Below, piece by piece: positions 1 through 23,214 of a DNA stretch of 64,000 nt; the stretch's first letter is position 1; every line of letters begins with the position of its first letter. The DNA comes from Escherichia phage vB_VIPECOOM01: the sequence record OQ721909; one strand, written 5' to 3'. Both the position numbers and the translations under genes were made by a program. The notes beneath the pieces are model-generated. The model had not been told where the DNA came from, made no database searches, and saw nothing but the letters and a program-made list of their open reading frames with translations.

Positions 1-2178
1 TTAGGCCGCAAGGGCCTTCATAGTTTTAGCGATTTGGGAAACTTCATCATCACTTAAAGAGTTGCGATAACCGATGAAGTCGGAAACAATACGGAATTTC
101 TTGGTAAACTCAGCAACCATTTTATCACTGTTTTTTGAAGCATTATTTGATAATACATCAAAAAGATTAGTTACTGTCCAGATGTCATGACCGATGGTAT
201 CTTTTCCACCGTTGAAATATATCCCCCGCAATGAACTAACCATATTACCGAGTCGTGTATATTCTTCAGAAACTTCATCTGTACTGAAGTACTTCATCAT
301 AAAATCTAGTTCAGGATACTTGATAATTTTATCAATATATCGTTGAGCTGAACTTGAATAACCTACATACTTATCATAATCTACATCATCAAAAGCATCT
401 ACATATAAATCACGCAGAGTTTCAAAAATACATTGGCACTGACCAAGTTCTTTTACCTTTTTCTGCAAAAGCGGACGAATAACATAAAATTCATTAATGC
501 CAATAAGATTAGCCATACGAATCAAAATATTCGTAGATGGATGACAAAGCGATGTAGTACCATCCATAGAGAAAATATCAGAACGATGCATGTATGCTAC
601 ATAACCAGTAATTTCATCTGCTTCTGATGTGAGCGTAAACAATTCCTCTTTTTCCCAGCGCCCGTCTTTAATTTCAAACTTAAATGCAGTGGCAGTTTTA
701 GGACGAGGAGATGTACTTTTTACTGCCTTTGGAATATAACTTTTAACTAAAGCTTCAATTTCTGACAAATAATGAATGTTAACTTCATCACTTTCAAACA
801 TTGCCATAATATCAGGAAGCAAATCAATCTGCGATTCTACTTCCGGATTAATAAACAGAAGGCGTTCATTGTGATGAATATTTAAGGTGTTATTAAATTC
901 ACTATCATCTAATGCACGTGCTAATCCACGGACAATATTAACACGATTTTTAATATTATCAATAACAATATTAATTTTTGTCGTATTAATACCAAACAGA
1001 CGATAGCTTGACGCAACAGCTGAAGTTTCATGGCTTTGCTTAATGCGTTTCAGTCGAGGGTCAAGATTTACTTCATACACAACCCCTGCATTGCATAACT
1101 TACTGTCAGGTTCAAACATGCTTTGCATCTTTTTATATGACAGATTTTTAGTCGTGAATTTGACCGAATTACTAATCATATAATCTCGAGCAGAATATCC
1201 CATCTTCATCAATTCACGGTATGTATGACGAGGAGATGTAGATTCTTTAAATCGTTTTACATCTTCATTAAATGCCTTCTCACTGAGCTCTTTAACACGC
1301 TCAATAATATTTTTACGAGTACGATCATCTAATGAAAGAGCCTCACGCGATGGGGCAATATCAAGTGAACCCATTGGAAACTTAATGTAATTCACTTCAT
1401 TGCGGATGCTTAACCAGTTACGGTCTCTAATAACACCATCGATAGGATAAACAATACCGCCATAGATAGCATACAATCCACCACGATCTGGCCAGTATCT
1501 TTCTGGATTTACACCGTAATAGTCATCAAAATCCGGAAAATAATCAATTTCACGGTCAAGACCATTAATGATAGCCAAATCTTTGAATGGTCGCATGATA
1601 TAAGAAACTTCATAAGCAAAGTTTCTAAAGTCTTTTTCTTCAACTGGAACTACGATTTCAATACCAGTTTTATCGTTTGGACCCATTTCTTTTACGAATG
1701 TAGGTTTAATCTGCGGACCATCACCATCCATGTAAGCTACATAACCGCGAATTTCACCTTTATGGTACGAAGTAATACTGAACGTATCAGTATAACTAAA
1801 CGGAGATTTAGAACCTAAACCAAATCCACCAATGAAATCGTTAGATTCAGCCTTAGATGAACTAAAGTATGAATTATACAACCCAGGAGAATTATCATCA
1901 CCCTGAATATCAAAATCGCTCATACCCGGACCAAAATCTCGACAAACAAATCGCGGATCTAATCGTCCTGGAACTTGAATGATAAATTTTTCAGGATTTC
2001 CATTGAGAGCATGGGCATCAATCATGTTGGTAATCAATTCACGAACTACTGCGCGAATCTTGTTTGTATACAAATCAGATGACAGAATTTTAAATACTTT
2101 AGGAGATGCTGTGATGCTAAATGCCTTTGATTTAGAACCATTACCAAGAATTGTTTCTTTTTCAGTGGTGATAATCAT
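1..2178 (-). CDS. rIIA: rIIA protein
   Basis: 725-aa ORF, same length as T4 rIIA; ATG at 2178 checked; sits next to gene 39 at the conventional T-even map origin. Confidence 0.85.
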
Positions 2179-2447: not shown

Positions 2448-4264
2448 TACTGGCTCATCCATTCTTTACGAAGGTCAGCATTATCTCCCATGAGCATTTC
2501 AAAAAGCTCTTTCCAGTTCTCAGGAAGTTTAACAACATCATATACTGGATTTTGAATCATCTCACGATATTCAGATTTTTCCAAAGAGCCAAGTCCCTTA
2601 ATATAACGGATGCTATGTTTAGGTAGAGCATCTTTGGCGCTCTCATATTCAGCGACTGTATAAAACCATTCTTGTTTTTTACCGACCTGAGCGATGATTA
2701 CAGGAGTTTTGACAAAGCGAATTCTTCCTTGTTCAAACAATTCTGGCCAATTACTGAAAAATCCGAGCAAAGAAGGATAAATGCTTCCTAGACCATCATG
2801 GTCAGCATCGGTCATAATTGCAATATTATGATAATTCAAGTTTTCAGCTTTTTCACCAAGAACTAATCCAGTGATTGCGCAAATATCAAATAGTTCTTTG
2901 TTTTTAAGCATATCAGCATATGACATGCCCCAACTGTTAAGAACTTTACCACGTAATGGATAACCACCATGAAGTTCTTTATCACGAACATCAATAAGAT
3001 ATCCGATAGCCGAATCACCCTCAGTCAAGAAAAGAGTAGTGTCAGCATCTTTACCACAAAGATTCGCTTTGATATGTTTATGAACCTTAGCTTTAGAGGC
3101 CTTTTTAGCTGCTTTAGTTTCTGCTGCCTTTTCTGCCGCCAATTTACGAGCCAAGGCAGCTTCAATGATTGGCATTAAAATTGCTTCATTATTCAAAATA
3201 GCACGTGAAATCTTTTTAGCATCAAGCTGAATATGACTACGGATTTCACCAAATGGAGAAGTCAAACGCTCTTTAGTTTGAGAGTCAAATCGCATGTTTT
3301 TCATATCACGAACAAACATAACGATAGTCAAACATTCTTTAACACGTGCTTTAGTTACATCAATTTTGAATTTACGTTTGATTTGTGGAATAAGGTCTTC
3401 ACAAATATCATCCATAACACAGTCAATGTGATGACCACCATTCTTAGTATGAATGTTATTAACGTACGTCAATTGACGAAAACCATCCGGTGAACGACCA
3501 ACCGCAATAGAACAGTTTTCTTGTTCTTGAACGATAGCATGCTCATCATATTGGCGTGCGTATTTCTTAAAATTACCCTGAACCTTTTTACCATTAAAGG
3601 TAAATTGAATATCAGGATAAACTACTGCAAGTGTCTGGAGACGATCTAGTGTAATGTCAAGATAAACTTGAGATAGCTCATTAGTTTCAAATGACATAAA
3701 ATCAGGAATGAAAGTAACGCGAGTTCCTTTCCATTTTCCAGGAATATCTTCCCATGATTTATTTTCCATGCCGTTTGAACAACGAACTACAATATTATTT
3801 TGACCGTCGCCAGTTTCACCGACAAACATCACAGAAAAAATGTTAGTTAAACTAGAGCCAACACCGTTCATACCGCCAGTGACGCGTTCTTTGTCATCAC
3901 CGAAGTTACCACCTGCTTTTGGAATAGTCCATGCAGCAACAGGACCAGGAATTTCTTCACCGGTAGGTGTTTTAACCATCGCCTGTGGAATACCACGACC
4001 GTTATCTTCAACTGTTACTTGATTGTTTTTAATAGTAACATTAATTTTATTCGCGAATTTAAACTTAGTACGAATACCTTCATCTACTGAGTTATCGATA
4101 ATTTCATCAATAAGCTTAACAAGACCAGGTACATACTGAACACTTTCCCATTTACCAAACAGAAAGCGCTCATGCATTTCATTAGCAGAAGAGCCAATAT
4201 ACATGCCGCTACGCTTTTTGATATGTTCAATATCGCTCAGAATTTTAATTTCATTCTTAATCAT
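2447..4264 (-). CDS. 39: DNA topoisomerase II large (ATPase) subunit, uninterrupted gp39 as in T2/T6
   Basis: GyrB-like ATPase/TOPRIM motifs (IDNSVDEG, GGMNGVGSS); 605 aa from ATG at 4264, track ORF starts one codon earlier at GTG; no gene 60 split. Confidence 0.9.
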   Translation of the reverse strand: MIKNEIKILSDIEHIKKRSGMYIGSSANEMHERFLFGKWESVQYVPGLVKLIDEIIDNSVDEGIRTKFKFANKINVTIKNNQVTVEDNGRGIPQAMVKTPTGEEIPGPVAAWTIPKAGGNFGDDKERVTGGMNGVGSSLTNIFSVMFVGETGDGQNNIVVRCSNGMENKSWEDIPGKWKGTRVTFIPDFMSFETNELSQVYLDITLDRLQTLAVVYPDIQFTFNGKKVQGNFKKYARQYDEHAIVQEQENCSIAVGRSPDGFRQLTYVNNIHTKNGGHHIDCVMDDICEDLIPQIKRKFKIDVTKARVKECLTIVMFVRDMKNMRFDSQTKERLTSPFGEIRSHIQLDAKKISRAILNNEAILMPIIEAALARKLAAEKAAETKAAKKASKAKVHKHIKANLCGKDADTTLFLTEGDSAIGYLIDVRDKELHGGYPLRGKVLNSWGMSYADMLKNKELFDICAITGLVLGEKAENLNYHNIAIMTDADHDGLGSIYPSLLGFFSNWPELFEQGRIRFVKTPVIIAQVGKKQEWFYTVAEYESAKDALPKHSIRYIKGLGSLEKSEYREMIQNPVYDVVKLPENWKELFEMLMGDNADLRKEWMSQ

Positions 4265-4291
4265 CACTTATCCTCGTTTGGTTTCGGGAAT

Positions 4292-4317
4292 ATTATACTC
4301 CAGTAATCATAAAGCTA
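4292..4317 (-). promoter_or_regulatory. MotA-dependent middle promoter for gene 39
   Basis: MotA box TAGCTTTA, 12-nt spacer, -10 TATAAT; directly follows the UUCG hairpin. Confidence 0.55.
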
Positions 4318-4319
4318 AA

Positions 4320-4331
4320 GGCCCGAAGGCC
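4320..4331 (-). terminator. UUCG-tetraloop hairpin
   Basis: GGCC-UUCG-GGCC on the transcript, immediately after the 4333..4605 stop. Confidence 0.55.
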
Positions 4332-4332
4332 T

Positions 4333-4605
4333 TTATTTAAAACGGATAGTCGAATCCTTGAAGAATAGACCAGAACATACTGTTCCTTCTACTTTCTGCC
4401 CGGTAGGTCCAATAGCACGAAATCCAGTATGCTGGAAATCATTTTCAGAGCAACCGAACCAATTATATCCAGTGATTTCAATATTAGTAAAACCACTTGA
4501 AGACAAAACTTTGGTTGCATTATCAGCATCAGTACATCCTACTAAAGATACTGCTAATACTAATGCCGCGATAGAACGATTAACATATTTCATAATTTCA
4601 CTCAA
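4333..4605 (-). CDS. small lipoprotein
   Basis: N-terminal signal peptide with lipobox LVGC; stop followed directly by a UUCG hairpin. Confidence 0.5.
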   Translation of the reverse strand: MSEIMKYVNRSIAALVLAVSLVGCTDADNATKVLSSSGFTNIEITGYNWFGCSENDFQHTGFRAIGPTGQKVEGTVCSGLFFKDSTIRFK

Positions 4606-4975
4606 ATTTAATGGCTTGAAGGAGACTAATAATTCTCAAGCGACTTCTTTCATCTTTAACTGTAAAAGAAAGAGGATCGCCAGATTTCATAGTGATGGTG
4701 CATCCAAAATCAAAATCTTCTGTAACTTCTTCGAAGAAGTCAAATTCTTCATCATAAATTAGAACATTACTCTGAAAACTATGAAGAATTTTTCCATCAT
4801 TTCCAGATGCTGTACTAATCATTGTAACATTATGGCCTTTCATATCTTCAACGATAAATTCGCTTGTAGATATTACAGTATTAATAGAACTATTCCTATA
4901 AATAGAAGAAAGTAGATATTTCTTTTCTTCACCTTCGCGAACACGATATTTCTTACCGATTTTAAACATAATCAC
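4598..4975 (-). CDS. hypothetical protein
   Basis: 125-aa ORF; track start codon is GTG, likely true ATG two codons in. Confidence 0.45.
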   Translation of the reverse strand: MIMFKIGKKYRVREGEEKKYLLSSIYRNSSINTVISTSEFIVEDMKGHNVTMISTASGNDGKILHSFQSNVLIYDEEFDFFEEVTEDFDFGCTITMKSGDPLSFTVKDERSRLRIISLLQAIKFE

Positions 4976-5150: not shown

Positions 5151-5570
5151 TTATTCCTTAAAATGTGCTTTCAACATCTGATACAAGGACCATGCCTGTT
5201 CATTATTTTCAATAGTAACTTTCATTACCGGGAATTCTGTGAAATCTTCTATTTGTTCTTGCTCTTCCTGCTCTTGTTCTTCAGCAGCCTGATATGGATT
5301 TTCCACTTCATCAAAGAACTCAGCTTCGTTAGTAGAGAGCCAGATAAAGTTTTCGTCAATGACTGTACCACATGTTGAATATCCAATTGTACCAGTAGAT
5401 GTCACAATTTTAGTAGGACGCCCGTAATAGTCAACATCTAAAATTTTAAAAGGTTCCATACCTAAACGTCGTGCATAGATTCCGTTGTCAGTATGGTCTT
5501 TAATAAAATTTTCTTGAGCTTGTTTATTTTTAAATTGATACCATTTATTAACTTCAAATCTAATAGCCAT
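5151..5570 (-). CDS. hypothetical acidic protein (goF position)
   Basis: 139 aa with [10 protein letters not shown] acidic tract; positional guess only. Confidence 0.45.
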
Positions 5571-5785
5571 TAATAAATTTCCTTCCAGTAAGTTGTGCCA
5601 TCTTCAGTAATTTCACGAAATACACCGTAAATCGGTTGTTTATCACCAACCTTTTCATACACATAAACCGAAGTCAAGTGAGTAAACTTAACAGTATGTT
5701 CCTTTTGAACCACTACCAAATCTGGATCGAATAATACATCTTCAAATTCGTCATTAGTGCATTTCTGAACAGTTTTACGTTTCAT
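5570..5785 (-). CDS. hypothetical protein (cef position)
   Basis: 71 aa, same length as T4 Cef; start overlaps upstream stop. Confidence 0.4.
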
Positions 5786-5798
5786 TACAATTTCCTCA

Positions 5799-6068
5799 TT
5801 AATTGAACAGTGGAGCGATGCGTTTCAGAAGAGTAGCAGCACCTTTGGCGAATTTTACATCATGAAAAACAGTTTCTTCTTCCGTTACAACACGAACTTT
5901 AATGTTTTCACAATCCCAATTTTTACGAACAATCTTCAAAAGCTGCAGTAAATCTTTACATTCAGCAATATCGATAACACATCCACGAGAATCTTCCATT
6001 ATCGCACGATAACCGTAAGCCGTACCATAATCGTTGAAAGATTGCTCGATGATAATTAAGTTTTCCAT
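5799..6068 (-). CDS. hypothetical protein
   Basis: ATG at 6068 with GGAG SD; track ORF starts at upstream TTG; preceded by the conserved promoter-leader cassette. Confidence 0.5.
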   Translation of the reverse strand: MENLIIIEQSFNDYGTAYGYRAIMEDSRGCVIDIAECKDLLQLLKIVRKNWDCENIKVRVVTEEETVFHDVKFAKGAATLLKRIAPLFN

Positions 6069-15510: not shown

Positions 15511-16029
15511 TTAATAACCTCGGTCTTGACGAGCGAAGTTTTCAGCATTTTTCAGATAATAAAGTTTAAAAATTTCTTCAGCCGTAAGACCAAGACCTTG
15601 GAACATGTTCAGAACGAAATGAAGAATATCAATCATTTCGAATTTAATTTCCAACTGATCTTGCGGAGACAAATCAGTAATTAGAGTTTCACGGCGTTCA
15701 CCATGTTGAGCTTTCCAAGGCTTCCATACAGCAGATGCATCTTTTTCACCATTGCTCATACCGCCAAGAGAAGTTAGAAGTTCACGGAATTCATCATCAA
15801 TATAATCTTTCTGATTACGCAGCCAATCAACAACTTCACCTGCAGTAGCCAAATCATCAGGATGACGGTTATATTCAGGTTTATCTTTAGCTAAACGAAC
15901 TTGCAGAGATTTCTGCATATCAAGCATAACTTGCAGCGGGTCTTTTTCATCACCGAGAATATCCCAGTATTCATTTTGAGCTTTATCAGCGCCTTCGATC
16001 AATTGTGAACATTCATTAAAGTATGCCAT
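15511..16029 (-). CDS. 56: dCTP pyrophosphatase gp56 (MazG-like)
   Basis: 172 aa from ATG at 16029 (T4 gp56 171 aa); track ORF is N-terminally extended. Confidence 0.8.
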   Translation of the reverse strand: MAYFNECSQLIEGADKAQNEYWDILGDEKDPLQVMLDMQKSLQVRLAKDKPEYNRHPDDLATAGEVVDWLRNQKDYIDDEFRELLTSLGGMSNGEKDASAVWKPWKAQHGERRETLITDLSPQDQLEIKFEMIDILHFVLNMFQGLGLTAEEIFKLYYLKNAENFARQDRGY

Positions 16030-16100
16030 TATTTTTCCTTTCAATTCATGGATTAGTAGATTAATTATACAATAAATATATAAAGCAATAAGGAGGACAT

Positions 16101-16301
16101 ATGGTGCAAAAATTAATGGCACTTGTTAATGCCATCAAAGGTAATAAAAAACGTATAGCTTTTACTATTTCTGCTATGATAGGAATTTTACTTTGGAATT
16201 TTGTTTTATCGCCAGTTGCTATTGCTCATGGCGTTAGTATTCCAGTAATTACTCTTGATACATTCGTAGATTTAGCATTTGCTTTAGTTGGGTTAATTTA
16301 A
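16101..16301 (+). CDS. small two-helix membrane protein (plus strand)
   Basis: 66 aa, hydrophobic; AGGAGG SD 4 nt before ATG; fills the 56/61 gap where T4 carries segF; 3' end converges on gene 61. Confidence 0.45.
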   Translation: MVQKLMALVNAIKGNKKRIAFTISAMIGILLWNFVLSPVAIAHGVSIPVITLDTFVDLAFALVGLI

Positions 16302-17326
16302 ATCTTAGCATATTTAGATAGCCGCATTTTAGCCATCAACCCTTGGGCAATATTATTTTTCATATATTCCATAATTTGTTCAGGGGTTGCACCTTCCTTT
16401 CTAATCATATCATTAACATCTTTTGATTTCCAGGGAGATTTGTCCCAAAACATAACCCTTTCTCCTGCATCAACTAATTTAGTCATTCGTTTAATAGTGT
16501 CAGGGTGACGAGGTTCATTATCTAAAACCCATACACGTCTATCTTTAAATGGAACAATTTCTAGGTCTAATTGGCCACCCGTAATAGCTATACCATTTTC
16601 AATAAAAAGTGAATCTATAGGTCCTTCTAGAACATATACATCACCATCTTTAACCCGTTCGACACCATAGATTTTTGTTGCCTCAGGATAAGCTTTGATG
16701 GTGATATATTTTTGAGGAGCATCTTTCTTTAATGCACGTCCTTGAAAAGACTCAGCTTTTCCATTAGCATTATAAATTGGAATAACAAGACGAGGCTCAG
16801 GTATTTCCTTTTTATATGTTCCTGGTGCTATACTATTAACTAATTTAGGCCATTCGGTTGTAAACCAAAGATATTTCCATTTATCCTTTGGAATACAGCG
16901 AGCTTTTACATATTTTATAATTGGATGGTCTTCCGTCAGTTTATCTAATCTAATACATGACGGAAGAGATTTAATTATTTTCTTCTCAGGTTGTTTAGGA
17001 AGTTCTTTAGGTTTTTCTACTGGACGACTTTTACCTTTTTCTTTTCTTATTTCAAAGATATACTCACGATATAAATCAGGTTCAAACTCCTTTAAATATA
17101 TTCCGATTGGTGCATGATAGTTACAGTTATAACAATGAATATTTCCTTCATTATTATCACCATAATACCATCCACGGGCTTTATTTTGGTCGGTTTTTGA
17201 ATCTCCACAAACAGGGCATCTAAACCGCAATTTAAAAGTTGAACTATTATTTACTTGTGTGAATTTAGGTAAATGAGCCAATGCACGGTATGCAAACTCA
17301 TTATCAATCCAAGGTATTGATGACAT
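16298..17326 (-). CDS. 61: DNA primase gp61
   Basis: 342 aa as T4 gp61; zinc ribbon CPVCGDS...CYNC; ATG checked. Confidence 0.9.
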   Translation of the reverse strand: MSSIPWIDNEFAYRALAHLPKFTQVNNSSTFKLRFRCPVCGDSKTDQNKARGWYYGDNNEGNIHCYNCNYHAPIGIYLKEFEPDLYREYIFEIRKEKGKSRPVEKPKELPKQPEKKIIKSLPSCIRLDKLTEDHPIIKYVKARCIPKDKWKYLWFTTEWPKLVNSIAPGTYKKEIPEPRLVIPIYNANGKAESFQGRALKKDAPQKYITIKAYPEATKIYGVERVKDGDVYVLEGPIDSLFIENGIAITGGQLDLEIVPFKDRRVWVLDNEPRHPDTIKRMTKLVDAGERVMFWDKSPWKSKDVNDMIRKEGATPEQIMEYMKNNIAQGLMAKMRLSKYAKI

Positions 17327-17328
17327 TT

Positions 17329-17493
17329 TTACTCTTCTTTTTCTTTAGATTCCTCTTTTTTCTTTTTAGGAATCTGTTCAGGGCCTTTATTTACTACAGC
17401 ACCTGATGTTGTTCCAGTAGAGATATTTTCAGGATTACCGCCTGAATCTCCAGCTACCATATCTTCTTTAATAAATTCTTTATATGTTTTCAT
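17329..17493 (-). CDS. candidate capsid-targeted internal peptide (54 aa), missing from the ORF track
   Basis: Hand translation MKTYKEFIKEDMVAGDSGGNPENISTGTTSGAVVNKGPEQIPKKKKEESKEKEE; N-terminus matches the CTS of ipII/ipIII in this window; GAGG SD; frame checked. Confidence 0.45.
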   Translation of the reverse strand: MKTYKEFIKEDMVAGDSGGNPENISTGTTSGAVVNKGPEQIPKKKKEESKEKEE

Positions 17494-17494
17494 A

Positions 17495-17851
17495 TTAACC
17501 TCTATTCATAAAAGCATTAAAAATTTGGTCATCAATCGATGGAATAGCAACCTTTTCTACATCATTTAACAAATCATTAATTTCGTCAGATAGCATAACG
17601 CATGTACCTTTATTTCCTGTAATTGTTACTGCGCAATTACGAACGTTTTCTTTATCAAATTTTAGGTTAATATTTTCGTAGTGAAAATCCTTTAATGCCG
17701 AATATATTTTTAAAATGAAATTGTCTTTTACTACAATAAACCCAACCTCACTATTAAAACGTGGTTCATGGAAACTGTAATAAACCTTTTCATCTATAAA
17801 ATCGTATGAAATTTTTTCCATTTTTAAATATGAAAATTCAGAACTATACAT
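17495..17851 (-). CDS. hypothetical protein (61.1 position)
   Basis: 118 aa; last 12 codons and stop are nucleotide-identical to the next ORF. Confidence 0.45.
   Translation of the reverse strand: MYSSEFSYLKMEKISYDFIDEKVYYSFHEPRFNSEVGFIVVKDNFILKIYSALKDFHYENINLKFDKENVRNCAVTITGNKGTCVMLSDEINDLLNDVEKVAIPSIDDQIFNAFMNRG
17500..17536. repeat. 37-nt direct repeat, copy 1
   Basis: ctctattcataaaagcattaaaaatttggtcatcaat, identical to 17858..17894. Confidence 0.8.
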
Positions 17852-17852
17852 A

Positions 17853-18479
17853 CTAATCTCTATTCATAAAAGCATTAAAAATTTGGTCATCAATAGAAAC
17901 ATTCACTTTAGACTGTTTTTCTGATGTCAATTCATATCCGCATATTACAATTTTGTGATCAATATCAAAATATGCAGAAGCAATATGATTAATGATGTTT
18001 TCAGTAAAGTCTAAATCAACATCAATATCTTTTTGACCACAACCTAAAGGATAAATAATGCGAGTAATTCGATTATCTTTAACAAAGATTCCACCGACAT
18101 ACTCAGTGTTACGTTTAAAGTCTACACGCCGACGAAATGAAAAATATTCAGGCTCTTTATGAGCTCGGCTCATAGGACACAACGAGTAACTAGAGTAAGA
18201 GATGTCAAATCCTACGCCTTCAATATGAGCCAAAGTATCATGATTAAACCAATTATAATCGTACGCCAAGTCCATTAGATTATAATATGTAAAAGGCACC
18301 GGATTAACATCATTAGTCACAAGCATGTAATTAGCAACTGCTATAATTTCGTTGTTTTTAACGAATACAAACCGTGATTGATGCGAATGACCTGGACCCG
18401 CGTTTTCACGATTAATGATATAACACTGGGCACCTTTATATTTGTATGTATCTTTGCACTTGTGCATTTGATAGAGCAT
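17853..18479 (-). CDS. hypothetical protein (61.2 position)
   Basis: 208 aa; shares C-terminal SIDDQIFNAFMNR with 17495..17851. Confidence 0.45.
   Translation of the reverse strand: MLYQMHKCKDTYKYKGAQCYIINRENAGPGHSHQSRFVFVKNNEIIAVANYMLVTNDVNPVPFTYYNLMDLAYDYNWFNHDTLAHIEGVGFDISYSSYSLCPMSRAHKEPEYFSFRRRVDFKRNTEYVGGIFVKDNRITRIIYPLGCGQKDIDVDLDFTENIINHIASAYFDIDHKIVICGYELTSEKQSKVNVSIDDQIFNAFMNRD
17858..17894. repeat. 37-nt direct repeat, copy 2
   Basis: Identical to 17500..17536; encodes the shared C-terminus of the 61.1/61.2 ORFs. Confidence 0.8.
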
Positions 18480-18772
18480 TATTCACCTACCACTTCAGCG
18501 ATGATATTTTTATTATTAAAGTTTTTATCGCAATATAGAACATAATTATACTGCATTACACCACCAGACTTAAGCTGTTTTTGCACTTCAGCTTTCATTT
18601 CAGGACGATCACGCTCAACGATATTCATAATATCTGCTTCAATTTGAGTTTCAACTTCAGTCTGATCTGCAGTCATAGACCATTCACACAAGTCTTTATC
18701 ATAACCTGCCATAGCAGGCTGAGCAGCGCAAGAAGATAAAGCAAAAATTGCAGCAAAGATAAATTTTTTCAT
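18479..18772 (-). CDS. sp: periplasmic Spackle-like protein
   Basis: 97 aa with signal peptide MKKFIFAAIFALSSCAAQPAMA; length and position match T4 sp. Confidence 0.55.
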   Translation of the reverse strand: MKKFIFAAIFALSSCAAQPAMAGYDKDLCEWSMTADQTEVETQIEADIMNIVERDRPEMKAEVQKQLKSGGVMQYNYVLYCDKNFNNKNIIAEVVGE

Positions 18773-18832
18773 GATAATCTCCTCAGTAGTTTATGTTTAT
18801 ATAGTATCTCAATTTCCAACAAAAGTAAACAG

Positions 18833-19132
18833 TTATTTTAAAACTTCTGCATAATCACATGTTACAAACTGTTTCTCTAACTTGATGATTTTACGAAAGT
18901 ATCTTTTACATTGGCGAATCTGTCGCTTCGTAGGGCGCACAGCAAACTTAATAAATTCCACTCGACCAAATGGAGGACTTTCTTCTGCTGGAATATCTAA
19001 CACCAATTCCCACGTATCCGCAATAAGTGCCTTGAATTGAGTATTTTTCCTGACGTTATACGGAGTAGGTTTAAATAAAACAATGTGCATATTATCCTCG
19101 GCAATCAACTTCACATACTTTCTTATCATCAA
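18833..19132 (-). CDS. basic small protein (61.4 position), possible TifA-like RNA-binding anti-toxin factor
   Basis: 99 aa with basic C-terminus; directly downstream of dmd; assignment from position and memory. Confidence 0.35.
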   Translation of the reverse strand: MMIRKYVKLIAEDNMHIVLFKPTPYNVRKNTQFKALIADTWELVLDIPAEESPPFGRVEFIKFAVRPTKRQIRQCKRYFRKIIKLEKQFVTCDYAEVLK

Positions 19133-19274
19133 TGAAAGCTTTAACTAGTGCTTTATTAACTTCAGCATATTGAGTAGTAGCCCATTGAACGTCATCTTTC
19201 ATCATTGTGATTTCTTTAGTAAACATGCTTTCATTCTTAAACCACCCCATAAAAACTACCTTTACCAATTCCAT
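19092..19274 (-). CDS. dmd: Dmd, antitoxin against RnlA/LsoA
   Basis: 60 aa, length and position (between 61.x and 41) as T4 Dmd. Confidence 0.65.
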   Translation of the reverse strand: MELVKVVFMGWFKNESMFTKEITMMKDDVQWATTQYAEVNKALVKAFIDDKKVCEVDCRG

Positions 19275-19303
19275 AACAATCTCCTCATTTAACCAACAAG
19301 ACT

Positions 19304-19333
19304 ACTATACCATAGTCTTGTCAGCTTGTAAAC
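19304..19333 (-). promoter_or_regulatory. early promoter upstream of dmd
   Basis: GTTTAC, 18 nt, TATAGT between gene 41 stop and dmd start. Confidence 0.5.
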
Positions 19334-20760
19334 TAAAATTTTAATTCATTTGCCAAAGCATCTAACTGAGCTCGAGCCGATTCATTTCTTTGATAGCGGT
19401 TCTGCTCAGCCTGAATCTGCTGTGAACCTGCTACTTCGTTCACTTCAGTTGGAGTAGAATCTTGTTCAATTTCTACCCATTTCTGATTTCCTTTTTGAAC
19501 ACCCATCAAAAACTTATTCCATTTATTCTTATCACCATATCGTGATTTGATTTGCTTAATGAGTTGTTGTTCAGCAGCTGCTAGCTCCTCGGTTTCAATG
19601 ACCGCAAGCATAAAATCGGCTGTTGCTGGAAGACCGGCAGATTCTGCAATATCGCTCATGTTAACATCAGAAGAATCCCAAGCTTGCTTACCAACCTGTG
19701 CTGCAGTCCAAAGAACAGTTTCGGTTTCAACAGCAAGAGCACGCAATTCTTCTGCGATGGCTTTAACAGTTGTGTAACTATTTTCTGAATAAACTCTAAT
19801 GCGGCAAGATTTACAAATACCTAGATAGTCAACAATAATGATTGTTGGAACAAAATTCTTCTTGAGCTTCAATTCGTTTAAAAGCGACCGAAATGTATTA
19901 GCATCTGCTCCACCAGTAGGATATTGCTTAACGATTAAACGTCCAAGAGTAGATTTCTCACGCCATTTTTCCATTTTTCCTTTATATTCAGCGTAAGAAA
20001 TATGCCCATCATCAATGTCATCAAGAGAAACATCGAGCATATTAGCATCAATACGTTTAGCACAGACTTCTTCTGCCATTTCCATTGAAATGTAAAGAAC
20101 ATTATGACCGAGCTGTAAATAATCTGCTGCCAATGAACACAGACCTAATGACTTACCAACGTTAACACCAGCCATTAAAACGTTCAGTGTTCCAGTTTCA
20201 GCTCCGCCTTTAGTAATTTTGTTTAGAATTTTGAGTTTAAATGGAACCTTACGAGCTTTATTCATATAAGATAGCCAACGTGCTTCGTAGTCATCCATCC
20301 AATCATGACCAACGTAACTATCAAATGAAATTGATAATGCTTGACGCATGATGTCAGGAATAGCACCTACATCTGGCATTTTCTTATTTCGTTTTTCCGG
20401 AGGAAGCTCAGCATTAGTTTGAATTTCAATTATTTTAGACGTAGCATTAAACATCGCCCTTTGCTGAACATATTTTTCTGTTTCTTTTACTAACCAGCTG
20501 TGGTCTTCCGGAGAATCGGTTAGTTTTGAAATAAGTGTTTTTACACCAGAATATTCTGTTTCAGTAAATGAACTATTTTCTAATGCAACATTTAACGCAT
20601 TAATAGATGGAACGCTATGGTACTCATTAACATGAGATTTAATTAATTTGAATGTATTTTTAGCTGGACCACTTTCAAAATATTCTGAATCCATATATGG
20701 CCAAACTTTTGAAAAATAAGCTTGATCAAATATGAGATGAGAAAGAATAATTTCTACCAC
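19333..20760 (-). CDS. 41: replicative DNA helicase gp41
   Basis: 475 aa as T4 gp41; Walker A GVNVGKS; GTG start with AAGGAG SD. Confidence 0.9.
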   Translation of the reverse strand: MVEIILSHLIFDQAYFSKVWPYMDSEYFESGPAKNTFKLIKSHVNEYHSVPSINALNVALENSSFTETEYSGVKTLISKLTDSPEDHSWLVKETEKYVQQRAMFNATSKIIEIQTNAELPPEKRNKKMPDVGAIPDIMRQALSISFDSYVGHDWMDDYEARWLSYMNKARKVPFKLKILNKITKGGAETGTLNVLMAGVNVGKSLGLCSLAADYLQLGHNVLYISMEMAEEVCAKRIDANMLDVSLDDIDDGHISYAEYKGKMEKWREKSTLGRLIVKQYPTGGADANTFRSLLNELKLKKNFVPTIIIVDYLGICKSCRIRVYSENSYTTVKAIAEELRALAVETETVLWTAAQVGKQAWDSSDVNMSDIAESAGLPATADFMLAVIETEELAAAEQQLIKQIKSRYGDKNKWNKFLMGVQKGNQKWVEIEQDSTPTEVNEVAGSQQIQAEQNRYQRNESARAQLDALANELKF

Positions 20761-21132: not shown

Positions 21133-22288
21133 TTAACTGATCTAGGTCAGTTTCTAAATCAGCTGCTGATTTACTTTTACTTTCTGGAGATTTAAATTTT
21201 TCAACCTTTGAGTTAATCAATTCATCAACTTCAGCTTCAACAATTTCATTACTATCAATAGCACCTAACTGATAAGCACGTTTAATAGCATCTCGGAATG
21301 GTTGATGCTTAAATAAAGGACCCCAGAATGTAGTACAGTTGGTATCTTTTGCACGCCAAGATTTTTCTTCGCGAATCATCTCGCCGGTTTCTTCGTCAAG
21401 AAATTCACGAGCATACCAGCCATTTTTAGGTTTTACCACAAATCCTAATTCAAGAGCCATATCTAACAATCCAGAATAAGGATCGATGCCACCGTCAAAT
21501 TTAACATCAATAAAGAATTTACTTTTTTCTTTAACGGTACGAGATTTTTCTACATTTAGAACAAATTGATACCCCTGAAGATCAGAACCATCTTTAATCT
21601 GGCGCTTACCGATAATGAATACAGTATCAGCCGAATACATTACGCCTGTACCACCTGTCATCACGGTTTTACTAAACATTTCAATTGTTTCAATTGTATG
21701 GTTAACCGCAACACACGGAATGTTTTTAATACTAAAATAAGGAGTAACAATACGGAATAATGACTTCAGCGATTTAGCACGAGTCATATCTGCCACAGAT
21801 TTTTCATTCAAGGCATCTTCCGTTTCTTTCTTAGAAGCCATATTACCGATTGAGTCGATGAATACAATAACTTTTTCACCGCGCTCAATAGCTTCAAGCT
21901 GATTCACCATATCAATTTTCAGTTGTTCAACTGACTGGATTGGTGTATGAATTACTCGTTCCGGGTCAACTCCCATGGATCGCAAATAAGCTGGAGTAAT
22001 ACCAAATTCGCTATCATAGAATAAACAAACCGCATCAGGATATTTGTTCAAATACGCCGCAACCATAGTCAAAGACATATTTGATTTAAAGTGTTTAGAA
22101 GGACCTGCAAAAATGGTTAAACCAGACTGCATACCGCCATCAATTGCACCGGAAATAGCAATATTAAGCATTGGGATTTTTGTACGGATTACATCCTTTT
22201 CATTAAAGAATTTAGATGTAGTCAGTTCAGCAGTCATTTTAGAAGTGGAAGCTTTAATCAAACGGGATTTTAAATCTGCAATAGACAT
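21107..22288 (-). CDS. uvsX: UvsX recombinase (RecA-like)
   Basis: 393 aa vs 391 aa in T4; RecA-fold; ATG checked. Confidence 0.9.
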   Translation of the reverse strand: MSIADLKSRLIKASTSKMTAELTTSKFFNEKDVIRTKIPMLNIAISGAIDGGMQSGLTIFAGPSKHFKSNMSLTMVAAYLNKYPDAVCLFYDSEFGITPAYLRSMGVDPERVIHTPIQSVEQLKIDMVNQLEAIERGEKVIVFIDSIGNMASKKETEDALNEKSVADMTRAKSLKSLFRIVTPYFSIKNIPCVAVNHTIETIEMFSKTVMTGGTGVMYSADTVFIIGKRQIKDGSDLQGYQFVLNVEKSRTVKEKSKFFIDVKFDGGIDPYSGLLDMALELGFVVKPKNGWYAREFLDEETGEMIREEKSWRAKDTNCTTFWGPLFKHQPFRDAIKRAYQLGAIDSNEIVEAEVDELINSKVEKFKSPESKSKSAADLETDLDQLSDMEEFNE

Positions 22289-22365: not shown

Positions 22366-23214
22366 TTAATCAACTGCTATTGGATGAATAGCATTAAACT
22401 TATGAAACGCTTCTGATTTTTCTTTGCGCGAAACACACATGCGAAGAACCTTTAATGGCTCGTCTTCTTCACCTAATGATTTTCGTTTTTCAATATTAGA
22501 TGTTTTCCAACGAGCTTGCTCTGGAAATTCTCTATTGATTTGCTCGAGCGCTCTATTATGTTTTGAATTACTACGAATTGAACTACATCCGCCAGGAGCC
22601 TGTGCTTTTCCGGATACAACCAGATATTTGAACAAAGCCAAATGCGGATAACCTTGATTAATTAAATTGAGAAATGCATACATATCTTCGCATAAATCAA
22701 TTTTTCCATACCCAATTTGTTCTGTTGTAAGTTTTCCGAGGTCATACCAGGTATTCGTGAATCCATATGAATTTTCACGATAATTACCCCAAGATGAAGT
22801 AATTTTAAAAATTGGTAGACGAGCATGGCCATGATAATACCCGCAATCCATAGCATCTTCCACGTATTGAATCAATTCATAGAACTGTTCACGGGTTAAT
22901 TGATTAATTTTATCTACGCAGCGACGATCATCTTTCTTTCGCATTGAACTCATACGAATAGTAGTATCATCATCGATCATCCAAATTCGTTGACCTGCAT
23001 ACATATCAGTAATTGCTTTACGAGTACCAGCAATTCCATTAACATCATCAGGAATAGTTATAATTTTAGCTCTAGACCCGTAAGCGTCATAATAAGCTTT
23101 TTCTTCGTGTTTACGTATTACAATATGAGGTTCATAATCAGATGGAAACATATCAAGGGCAGAAACTGCCCCTACGCGTTGATAGCTTGGAATTACGAAT
23201 TGAATCATTTCCAC
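22366..23214 (-). CDS. GT-A-type glycosyltransferase at the beta-gt locus (candidate beta-glucosyl-HMC alpha-glucosyltransferase)
   Basis: 282 aa with WMIDDDT (DXD) motif; T4 beta-gt is 351 aa. Confidence 0.55.
   Translation of the reverse strand: MEMIQFVIPSYQRVGAVSALDMFPSDYEPHIVIRKHEEKAYYDAYGSRAKIITIPDDVNGIAGTRKAITDMYAGQRIWMIDDDTTIRMSSMRKKDDRRCVDKINQLTREQFYELIQYVEDAMDCGYYHGHARLPIFKITSSWGNYRENSYGFTNTWYDLGKLTTEQIGYGKIDLCEDMYAFLNLINQGYPHLALFKYLVVSGKAQAPGGCSSIRSNSKHNRALEQINREFPEQARWKTSNIEKRKSLGEEDEPLKVLRMCVSRKEKSEAFHKFNAIHPIAVD

Follow-up and report, generated by a model that had tools for sequence, protein, structure and literature searches.

A close sequence counterpart of the T4 early gene cluster between genes 41 and 61 encodes predicted toxin inhibitors and a predicted inhibitor of the gp5 tail lysozyme

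The closest described counterparts of the locus reported here are the small early genes located between genes 41 and 61 of phage T4 and their relatives in phage RB69. The function of Dmd (61.5) against the toxins RnlA and LsoA has been summarized in PMC9391042. In this work, Srikant, Guegler and Laub renamed T4 61.4 as tifA (ToxN inhibitory factor A), which encodes an 85-residue protein and is co-operonic with dmd, an early promoter upstream of dmd driving both genes (PMC9391042). The name adfA for T4 61.2 originates from the same source, where the region was proposed to form an “anti-TA island” composed of dmd, tifA and adfA, each of them directed against a different toxin-antitoxin defence (PMC9391042). 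T4-type TifA overcomes plasmid-borne toxIN only partly, and RB69 TifA was reported as the more potent ToxN inhibitor (PMC9391042). According to Guegler et al., a Pro-Thr-capped basic C-terminal helix of TifA (P53, T54, K55, R56 and R59) is required for RNA binding, ToxN association and inhibition, the F41 loop tunes potency, and the toxin is apparently held on abundant RNAs, 16S rRNA among them (PMC10853763). For AdfA, the R164H exchange in the RB69 protein resulted in DarT1 binding and neutralization, and deletion of adfA in T4 produced no phenotype against the DarTG1 system tested (PMC11257639). Spackle (61.3) is an early periplasmic protein. It binds to gp5, the tail spike of T-even phages that arrive later, at the lysozyme domain and, together with Imm, brings about superinfection exclusion; its complex with the gp5 lysozyme and the direct inhibition of this enzyme have been established by crystal structure and enzymology (PMC7677548).

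The stretch of phage DNA analysed here (the window) comprises 64 kb, and the 1.2-kb locus at 18300..19500 was compared with a phage collection by megablast. A 100% match at identical coordinates was obtained for Escherichia phage vB_VIPECOOM03 (OQ721911.1), specified in its record as a Tequatrovirus isolated on E. coli ATCC 25922. Identities of at least 90% were found for 501 phage records including OQ721911.1; the other 500 match at 90–99% and belong nearly all to T4-like phages of Escherichia, Shigella, Yersinia and Salmonella. The dmd-tifA-sp locus is hence among the most often sequenced stretches of phage DNA. The list of open reading frames contains three minus-strand ORFs of 60, 99 and 97 residues (Table 1), the second of which (18833..19132) is a mechanical reading from a TTG start. 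They are located between the gene 41 helicase on one side and the 61.x genes and the primase on the other, just as a preceding sequence-only reading of the window had placed and named them. All three are real genes and not chance ORFs, as each has a full-length Pfam match far above threshold, in agreement with the PHROG assignments. Plus-strand ORFs of 30–55 residues across the locus were taken for antisense artefacts arising in AT-rich coding sequence and rejected; neither OQ721911.1 nor T4 has any of them annotated. An Rfam scan of positions 17000..20000 on both strands (E ≤ 1) revealed no RNA family. Only two intergenic gaps exist from gene 41 to gene 61, one of 58 nt between gene 41 and dmd and one of 60 nt between tifA and sp; the remaining junctions from dmd to gene 61 are at most 2 nt long or overlapping. 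Judged by their sequences, the three genes are members of a near-unchanged copy of the well-studied T4 dmd-tifA-spackle cluster and are, as such, already known. Taken as a whole, the locus almost certainly represents the Tequatrovirus copy of the T4 early cluster 41 / dmd-tifA / sp-adfA-…-61 and would exert the functions described in the literature; no observation speaks against the gene identities. The identities, the kept motifs and the layout of genes and promoter emerge from the present analysis and all biochemical activities from the literature on T4 and RB69, whereas the division into two transcription units and the second promoter upstream of sp are deduced by us.

Table 1. Coordinates of genes and other elements of the locus in the 64-kb window
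Feature	Position	Strand	Basis
Gene 41 helicase	19333..20760		ORF list
T4-type early promoter of dmd-tifA	19304..19332	-	Promoter scan 10/12, T4 identity, PMC9391042
14-bp RNA hairpin, gene 41-dmd intergenic	19292..19325	-	Fold energy versus shuffles
dmd (61.5), 60 aa, predicted antitoxin against RnlA and LsoA endoribonuclease toxins	19092..19274	-	T4 identity, Pfam, PDB match
tifA (61.4), 85 aa, predicted RNA-binding inhibitor of type III toxin ToxN	18833..19090	-	T4 identity, Pfam, PHROG
Candidate for a second early promoter between tifA and sp (60-nt gap)	18801..18829	-	Read from sequence, inference
sp (61.3, Spackle), 97-aa precursor, predicted gp5 tail lysozyme inhibitor	18479..18772	-	T4 identity, Pfam, PDB matches
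adfA (61.2), 208 aa, anti-DarT factor A	17853..18479	-	Pfam, T4 identity
49-nt direct repeat (family D1) copy 2, adfA 3' end and next gene start	17849..17897		Repeat family D1
118-aa paralog of the AdfA C-terminal half	17495..17851	-	Pfam AdfA, AdfA alignment, phrog_4122
49-nt direct repeat (family D1) copy 1, 118-aa gene 3' end and next gene start	17491..17539		Repeat family D1
Primase	16298..17326		ORF list

Dmd of the window agrees with T4 Dmd in 60 of 60 residues, which substantiates the 60-residue antitoxin against RnlA/LsoA claimed by the earlier reading as far as gene identity is concerned. The Pfam family PF17587 covers residues 1–60 of 60 with 156.9 bits (cutoff 27), and the protein is identical to the crystallized chain 5hy3_B, “Antitoxin Dmd” (E = 1.8e-37). 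On the basis of its 100% identity to a characterized protein, Dmd of the window is predicted to bind and neutralize the RNase toxins RnlA and LsoA after their labile antitoxins have decayed.

The promoter assigned to dmd-tifA consists of a −35 element TTTACA (19332..19327), a 17-nt spacer, a TG upstream of the −10 element and the −10 element TATAGT (19309..19304). Its score is the joint top one of the region, it is the sole site with an upstream TG, and the stretch is identical to that of T4. The promoter scan of the whole region yielded 12 sites compared to 12.2 expected from shuffled sequence, i.e. chance level; the site preceding dmd is the single one accepted as promoter, because of its top score, its identity with T4 and the literature. 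An early promoter had been suggested at about 19304..19333 from the sequence alone, in good agreement with both the scan and PMC9391042. Transcription of dmd would start near 19297. After infection, host RNA polymerase would transcribe dmd and tifA from this site, and the two genes, being 1 nt apart, are probably translationally coupled. The arrangement of tifA directly downstream of dmd with a promoter upstream of dmd matches the early operon described in PMC9391042, and the promoter probably serves dmd-tifA and not the whole gene set.

For the genes further downstream, a candidate promoter can be read from the sequence of the tifA-sp gap, composed of (G)TTTACT, 17 nt and TACTAT and followed by a GAGGAG Shine-Dalgarno sequence (18784..18779). 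On account of the gap spacing, of this motif and its conservation in T4, and of the genes inserted at the tifA-sp gap in PP01 and RB69, we infer that two early units, dmd-tifA and sp-adfA-…-61, are fairly probable. The alternative of a single early unit that extends from dmd through gene 61, has its sole promoter upstream of dmd and contains an inactive tifA-sp motif would render the “one island, one promoter” view of the sequence-only reading literally right; we consider it possible, if on the unlikely side. The candidate fits only 8 of the 12 consensus positions, thus lies under the scan threshold and was not listed by the scan, as would be expected for an inactive motif, but it has the GTTTAC −35 motif in common with the promoter upstream of dmd, a 17-nt spacing and a strong Shine-Dalgarno sequence of its own, all within a gap that is 100% conserved with T4. 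Moreover, it is precisely in this gap that RB69 and PP01 carry additional genes, in keeping with a boundary between modules, and in T4 evolution experiments the amplified segment comprised dmd-tifA together with the promoter preceding dmd (PMC9391042). A terminator scan detected no terminator-like site between dmd and sp or elsewhere in the island except one inside adfA, a count at chance level; this result, which also favours a single unit, makes read-through from dmd-tifA into sp likely as well for the preferred arrangement of two units.

The gap between gene 41 and dmd moreover harbours a 14-bp RNA hairpin of −20.2 kcal/mol (z = −4.55; none of 200 shuffles folds as well), for which no match was found in Rfam. 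It overlaps the spacer and the −10 element of the dmd promoter, and the sole difference from T4 in its stem converts a G-U into a G-C pair. The complete hairpin would be contained only in read-through transcripts from gene 41.

Spackle of the window shares 94 of 97 residues with T4 Sp, two of the three differences (T8A and A12S) being located in the signal peptide and the third being K53E, and it is covered by the Pfam family T4_Spackle (PF25676) from residue 1 to 96 with 153.3 bits. The earlier description of a 97-residue signal-peptide protein matching Spackle was therefore correct. The intact Sec signal peptide encompasses residues 1–22 and ends at MKKFIFAAIFALSSCAAQPAMA/G (…AMA/G), leaving behind a mature periplasmic protein of 75 residues. 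This cut fits the structure 7cn6, whose mature chain begins at residue 23; further matches in the PDB are 6x6o, 6xc0 and 6xc1. Shi et al. (PMC7677548) named C29/C81 as disulfide pair and S32, M33, T34, A35, Q37 and N76 as residues in contact with gp5; all of them are kept. From the 97% identity, and the K53E exchange notwithstanding, the protein is predicted to inhibit the gp5 tail lysozyme. Exported via its 22-residue signal peptide, periplasmic Spackle would bind to the basic patch that surrounds the substrate cleft in the gp5 lysozyme of later T-even phages and thereby block their penetration.

Spackle is not directed against host defence but would act on the tail lysozyme of superinfecting phages, and the term “anti-host island”, applied to all three genes by the sequence-only reading, suits dmd and tifA but not Spackle as a gp5 lysozyme inhibitor (PMC7677548). 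A role of Spackle as an anti-defence factor like its neighbours, instead of a phage-versus-phage exclusion protein, could be suspected from its position between tifA and adfA and from the designation of other genes of the region as anti-toxin candidates (PMC9391042). We regard it as very improbable in view of the direct inhibition of the gp5 tail lysozyme revealed by structure and enzymology (PMC7677548) and of the periplasmic location of the protein, whereas TA toxins are cytoplasmic. In RB69, sp furthermore adjoins imm and imm.1, the other superinfection-immunity genes, which supports sp as a separate module.

The product of the middle gene is identical to T4 gp61.4 in 83 of 85 residues and to RB69 TifA in 57%, and it scores 74.5 bits with the Pfam family DUF7279 (cutoff 24.5). 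F41, the cap formed by P53 and T54, and the basic K55, R56 and R59 are kept, the segment of residues 52–72 carries a net charge of +8, and the block RPTKRQIRQ is invariant among the proteins of the window, of T4 and of the more distant RB69. Both a pronounced similarity to TifA and an intact RNA-binding motif, the joint absence of which had been named beforehand as evidence against the assignment, are thus present. TifA homologs were detected in 673 phage records, 501 of them with at least 80% identity. A PDB sequence search with TifA (E ≤ 1) gave no match and hence no solved structure; AlphaFold models have been published for a 98%-identical TifA (PMC10853763). The coding sequence of tifA is free of GAAAT (ToxN-motif) sites, and one such site occurs at 18816, 17 nt after the stop codon. 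By sequence, the 85-residue protein of the window is TifA, a predicted ToxN inhibitor. In analogy to T4, its Pro-Thr-capped basic helix (residues 53–70) is expected to bind RNA while the protein contacts ToxN at the toxI-binding pocket; ToxN would thereby be held on abundant RNAs such as 16S rRNA, and phage mRNA would not be cut.

The sequence-only reading had proposed a 99-residue protein with a basic C-terminus at the position of TifA, which proved right with respect to identity and basic helix but not to length. The 99-residue version is the longest mechanical ORF and overlaps the last 41 nt of dmd; it was dropped in favour of 85 residues on the basis of start context, profile boundaries, the RB69 alignment and the substitutions in the overlap. 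The ATG at 19090 lies one base past the dmd stop codon (19092) and is preceded at a distance of 5 nt by a GAGG Shine-Dalgarno sequence inside the dmd end, and this start is annotated in both OQ721911.1 and T4. The profile phrog_2375 covers residues 15–84 of the 99-residue ORF and thus starts at its residue 15, and the alignment with RB69 TifA likewise begins at the Met corresponding to 19090. Within the overlap of 41 nt, two nucleotides differ from T4. Neither exchange alters Dmd, but in the putative extension they would turn I into T and L into W; therefore, selection acts on the dmd frame only. A protein of 98 or 99 residues starting inside dmd at ATG 19129 or TTG 19132 and thus carrying 13–14 additional N-terminal residues can practically be dismissed: although the frame is open from 19132 with an in-frame ATG at 19129, and open in the corresponding upstream region of T4 and RB69 as well, this openness is accounted for by the constraint on the C-terminus of Dmd, neither 19132 nor 19129 is preceded by a recognizable Shine-Dalgarno sequence, and for the T4 gene the 85 cloned codons suffice for activity, which is lost upon deletion of their ATG (PMC9391042).

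The adfA gene, whose ATG overlaps the stop codon of sp by one base (TAATG), codes for a protein matched over its full length by PF23813 (441.7 bits) and 96% identical to T4 gp61.2 (198/207). It presumably acts as a DarT-binding inhibitor. His165 aligns with position 164 of the RB69 protein, which is an Arg there. The T4-type AdfA (at least 80% identity) occurs in 232 phage records and a divergent form (60–80%) in 253. Because T4 AdfA is without phenotype against the DarTG1 system tested, the actual targets of the AdfA alleles of T4 and of the window may be other homologs. The genes dmd, tifA and adfA are placed within 1.4 kb and correspond to the definition of the anti-TA island, an idea already published for T4; Spackle resides inside the cluster without being an anti-TA factor. 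The island bounds previously given as 18479–19274 properly enclose the three smaller genes but omit adfA, which had been grouped with the “61.x ORFs”.

Between adfA and 61.1, a position at which T4 has no gene, the window contains a further gene for a 118-residue protein. It matches the Pfam family AdfA at profile positions 113–211 with 33.3 bits (cutoff 27) as well as phrog_4122, and it is 35% identical to residues 109–207 of AdfA, a 13-residue tail, SIDDQIFNAFMNR, being identical in both. The half of AdfA matched is the one containing the DarT1-specificity position. At a threshold of at least 80% identity, the gene is found in 293 phage records. The two copies of the 49-nt direct repeat are 94% identical, and their spacing of 358 nt equals the length of the extra cassette. 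In T4, the sequence at the 3' end of 61.2 resembles a recombinant of both repeat copies, with adfA-type sequence on its left and the sequence following the 118-aa gene on its right. Three states of the locus were seen, namely adfA only (T4), both genes (window phage) and the 118-aa gene only (PP01), which, as the sequences suggest, could be interconverted by recombination between the repeats. By such recombination, the 118-aa gene appears to be gained, lost or exchanged for full-length adfA. An independent anti-defence function of the 118-residue protein, with another DarT homolog or another toxin as candidate target, appears unlikely to us. If true, the protein would provide the anti-TA island with a fourth specificity, and it may bear on the published DarTG resistance of T2, a phage said to lack adfA, for which that report credits adfN (30.3) in the case of DarTG1. 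This paralog is the only part of the region with any potential for novelty.

As genes, mechanisms and the concept of the anti-TA island have been published for T4 and the window phage carries near-identical copies, the finding is an ordinary one. A correct annotation is nevertheless useful, tifA and adfA being labelled “hypothetical protein” in many GenBank records including OQ721911.1. By its sequence, the cluster predicts a phage resistant to RnlAB/LsoAB, chromosomal ToxIN and some DarTG systems, a property that matters for the choice of therapy phages. Between genes 41 and 61, the cargo varies among T4, RB69, PP01 and the window phage, which characterizes the site as a hotspot, and small genes such as that of the 118-aa paralog are reasonable anti-defence candidates.

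Compared with T4 (NC_000866, 18966..20553), the window displays the same order 41 / dmd-tifA / sp-adfA-61.1-61, the same strand and the same junction geometry, with identical protein lengths of 60, 85, 97 and 208 residues and sequence identities of 96–100%. The tifA-sp gap is unchanged and the gap between gene 41 and dmd differs by one base; besides the three exchanges in Sp (T8A, A12S and K53E), TifA carries the substitutions V69I and I83V. The major difference to T4 is the extra 358-bp cassette encoding the 118-residue AdfA-like protein between adfA and 61.1. RB69, a Mosigvirus, shares with the window the adjacent dmd-tifA pair with its 1-nt junction, the invariant basic helix of TifA, and sp followed by adfA. 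Its TifA, however, consists of 70 residues, is 57% identical and lacks the 15-residue C-terminal extension of the window protein; tifA and sp are separated by imm.1 and imm, gene 41 and dmd by two ORFs, and its AdfA is the non-neutralizing allele with Arg164 whereas that of the window has a His. PP01, also a Tequatrovirus, resembles the window in dmd-tifA, sp, the 118-aa gene, 61.1 and 61. In contrast to the window, it is devoid of a full-length adfA, so that the 118-aa gene directly follows sp, and it contains two extra genes between tifA and sp, one of which is annotated as goF-like.

The 118-aa paralog of the C-terminal half of AdfA is encoded by a cassette of 358 bp, which carries a 49-nt direct repeat at each flank. 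This gene is missing from T4, while in PP01 it is present and adfA is missing. At the sequence level, the junction found in T4 looks like the recombined product of the two repeats. Taken together, this recombined-like T4 junction and the PP01 arrangement of a 118-aa gene without adfA give the locus three natural states.

Features in and around the gene 41-61 region
Feature	Position	Strand	Remarks
14-bp hairpin	19292..19325	-	fold -20.2 kcal/mol, z = -4.55
118-aa paralog of AdfA C-terminal half	17495..17851	-	predicted; without T4 counterpart
49-nt direct repeats	17491..17539 and 17849..17897		94% identical; flanking the cassette
Candidate second early promoter, GTTTACT-17-TACTAT	18801..18829	-	in tifA-sp gap
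beta-glucosyl-HMC-alpha-glucosyltransferase	22366..23208	-	record annotation; directly downstream of uvsX (junction near 22288)
66-aa ORF	16101..16301	+	adjoins gene 61, where T4 has dam (stretch 16030..16301)
Gene 56 (dCTPase)	15511..16029		just beyond the 66-aa ORF

Both tifA (18833..19090) and adfA (17853..18479) are still designated as 'hypothetical protein' in this GenBank record, as they are in the majority of the listed related entries; published names and functions already exist for both.

The strong hairpin is located between the stop codon of gene 41 and dmd, and overlaps the spacer and the -10 element of the early promoter. Its stem differs from that of T4 at one position, where the T4 difference turns G-U into G-C and pairing is kept. 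An Rfam scan of 17000..20000 on both strands (E <= 1) assigned the hairpin to no family. It could serve as a 3'-end stabiliser of gene 41 transcripts. Between the window and T4, identity is 100% across the tifA-sp gap. This gap harbours the candidate second early promoter, scoring under the threshold of the promoter scan, and a GAAAT motif at 18816, shortly past the tifA stop codon. GAAAT is the cleavage motif of ToxN.

Outside this region, T4 carries segA followed by the beta-glucosyltransferase gene downstream of uvsX. Because the alpha-glucosyltransferase gene directly follows uvsX in the window, the annotation indicates that the phage lacks this homing endonuclease at the uvsX junction, and its DNA glucosylation may differ from that of T4. 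On the other side, dam adjoins gene 61 in T4; as the plus-strand 66-aa ORF and gene 56 are found there instead, dam is missing from this location. RB69 is arranged as the window, with ORF029w at the position of the 66-aa ORF.

The cargo between genes 41 and 61 also differs among phages (4012..4690 and 5153..5899 of the RB69 locus; 1087..1591 of the PP01 locus). RB69 contains two unknown ORFs inserted between gene 41 and dmd, and its tifA-sp gap holds imm.1 and imm; in PP01 the tifA-sp gap is occupied by a goF-like and a hypothetical gene. The insertions of RB69 and PP01 reside in the same two intergenic gaps as the promoter motifs.
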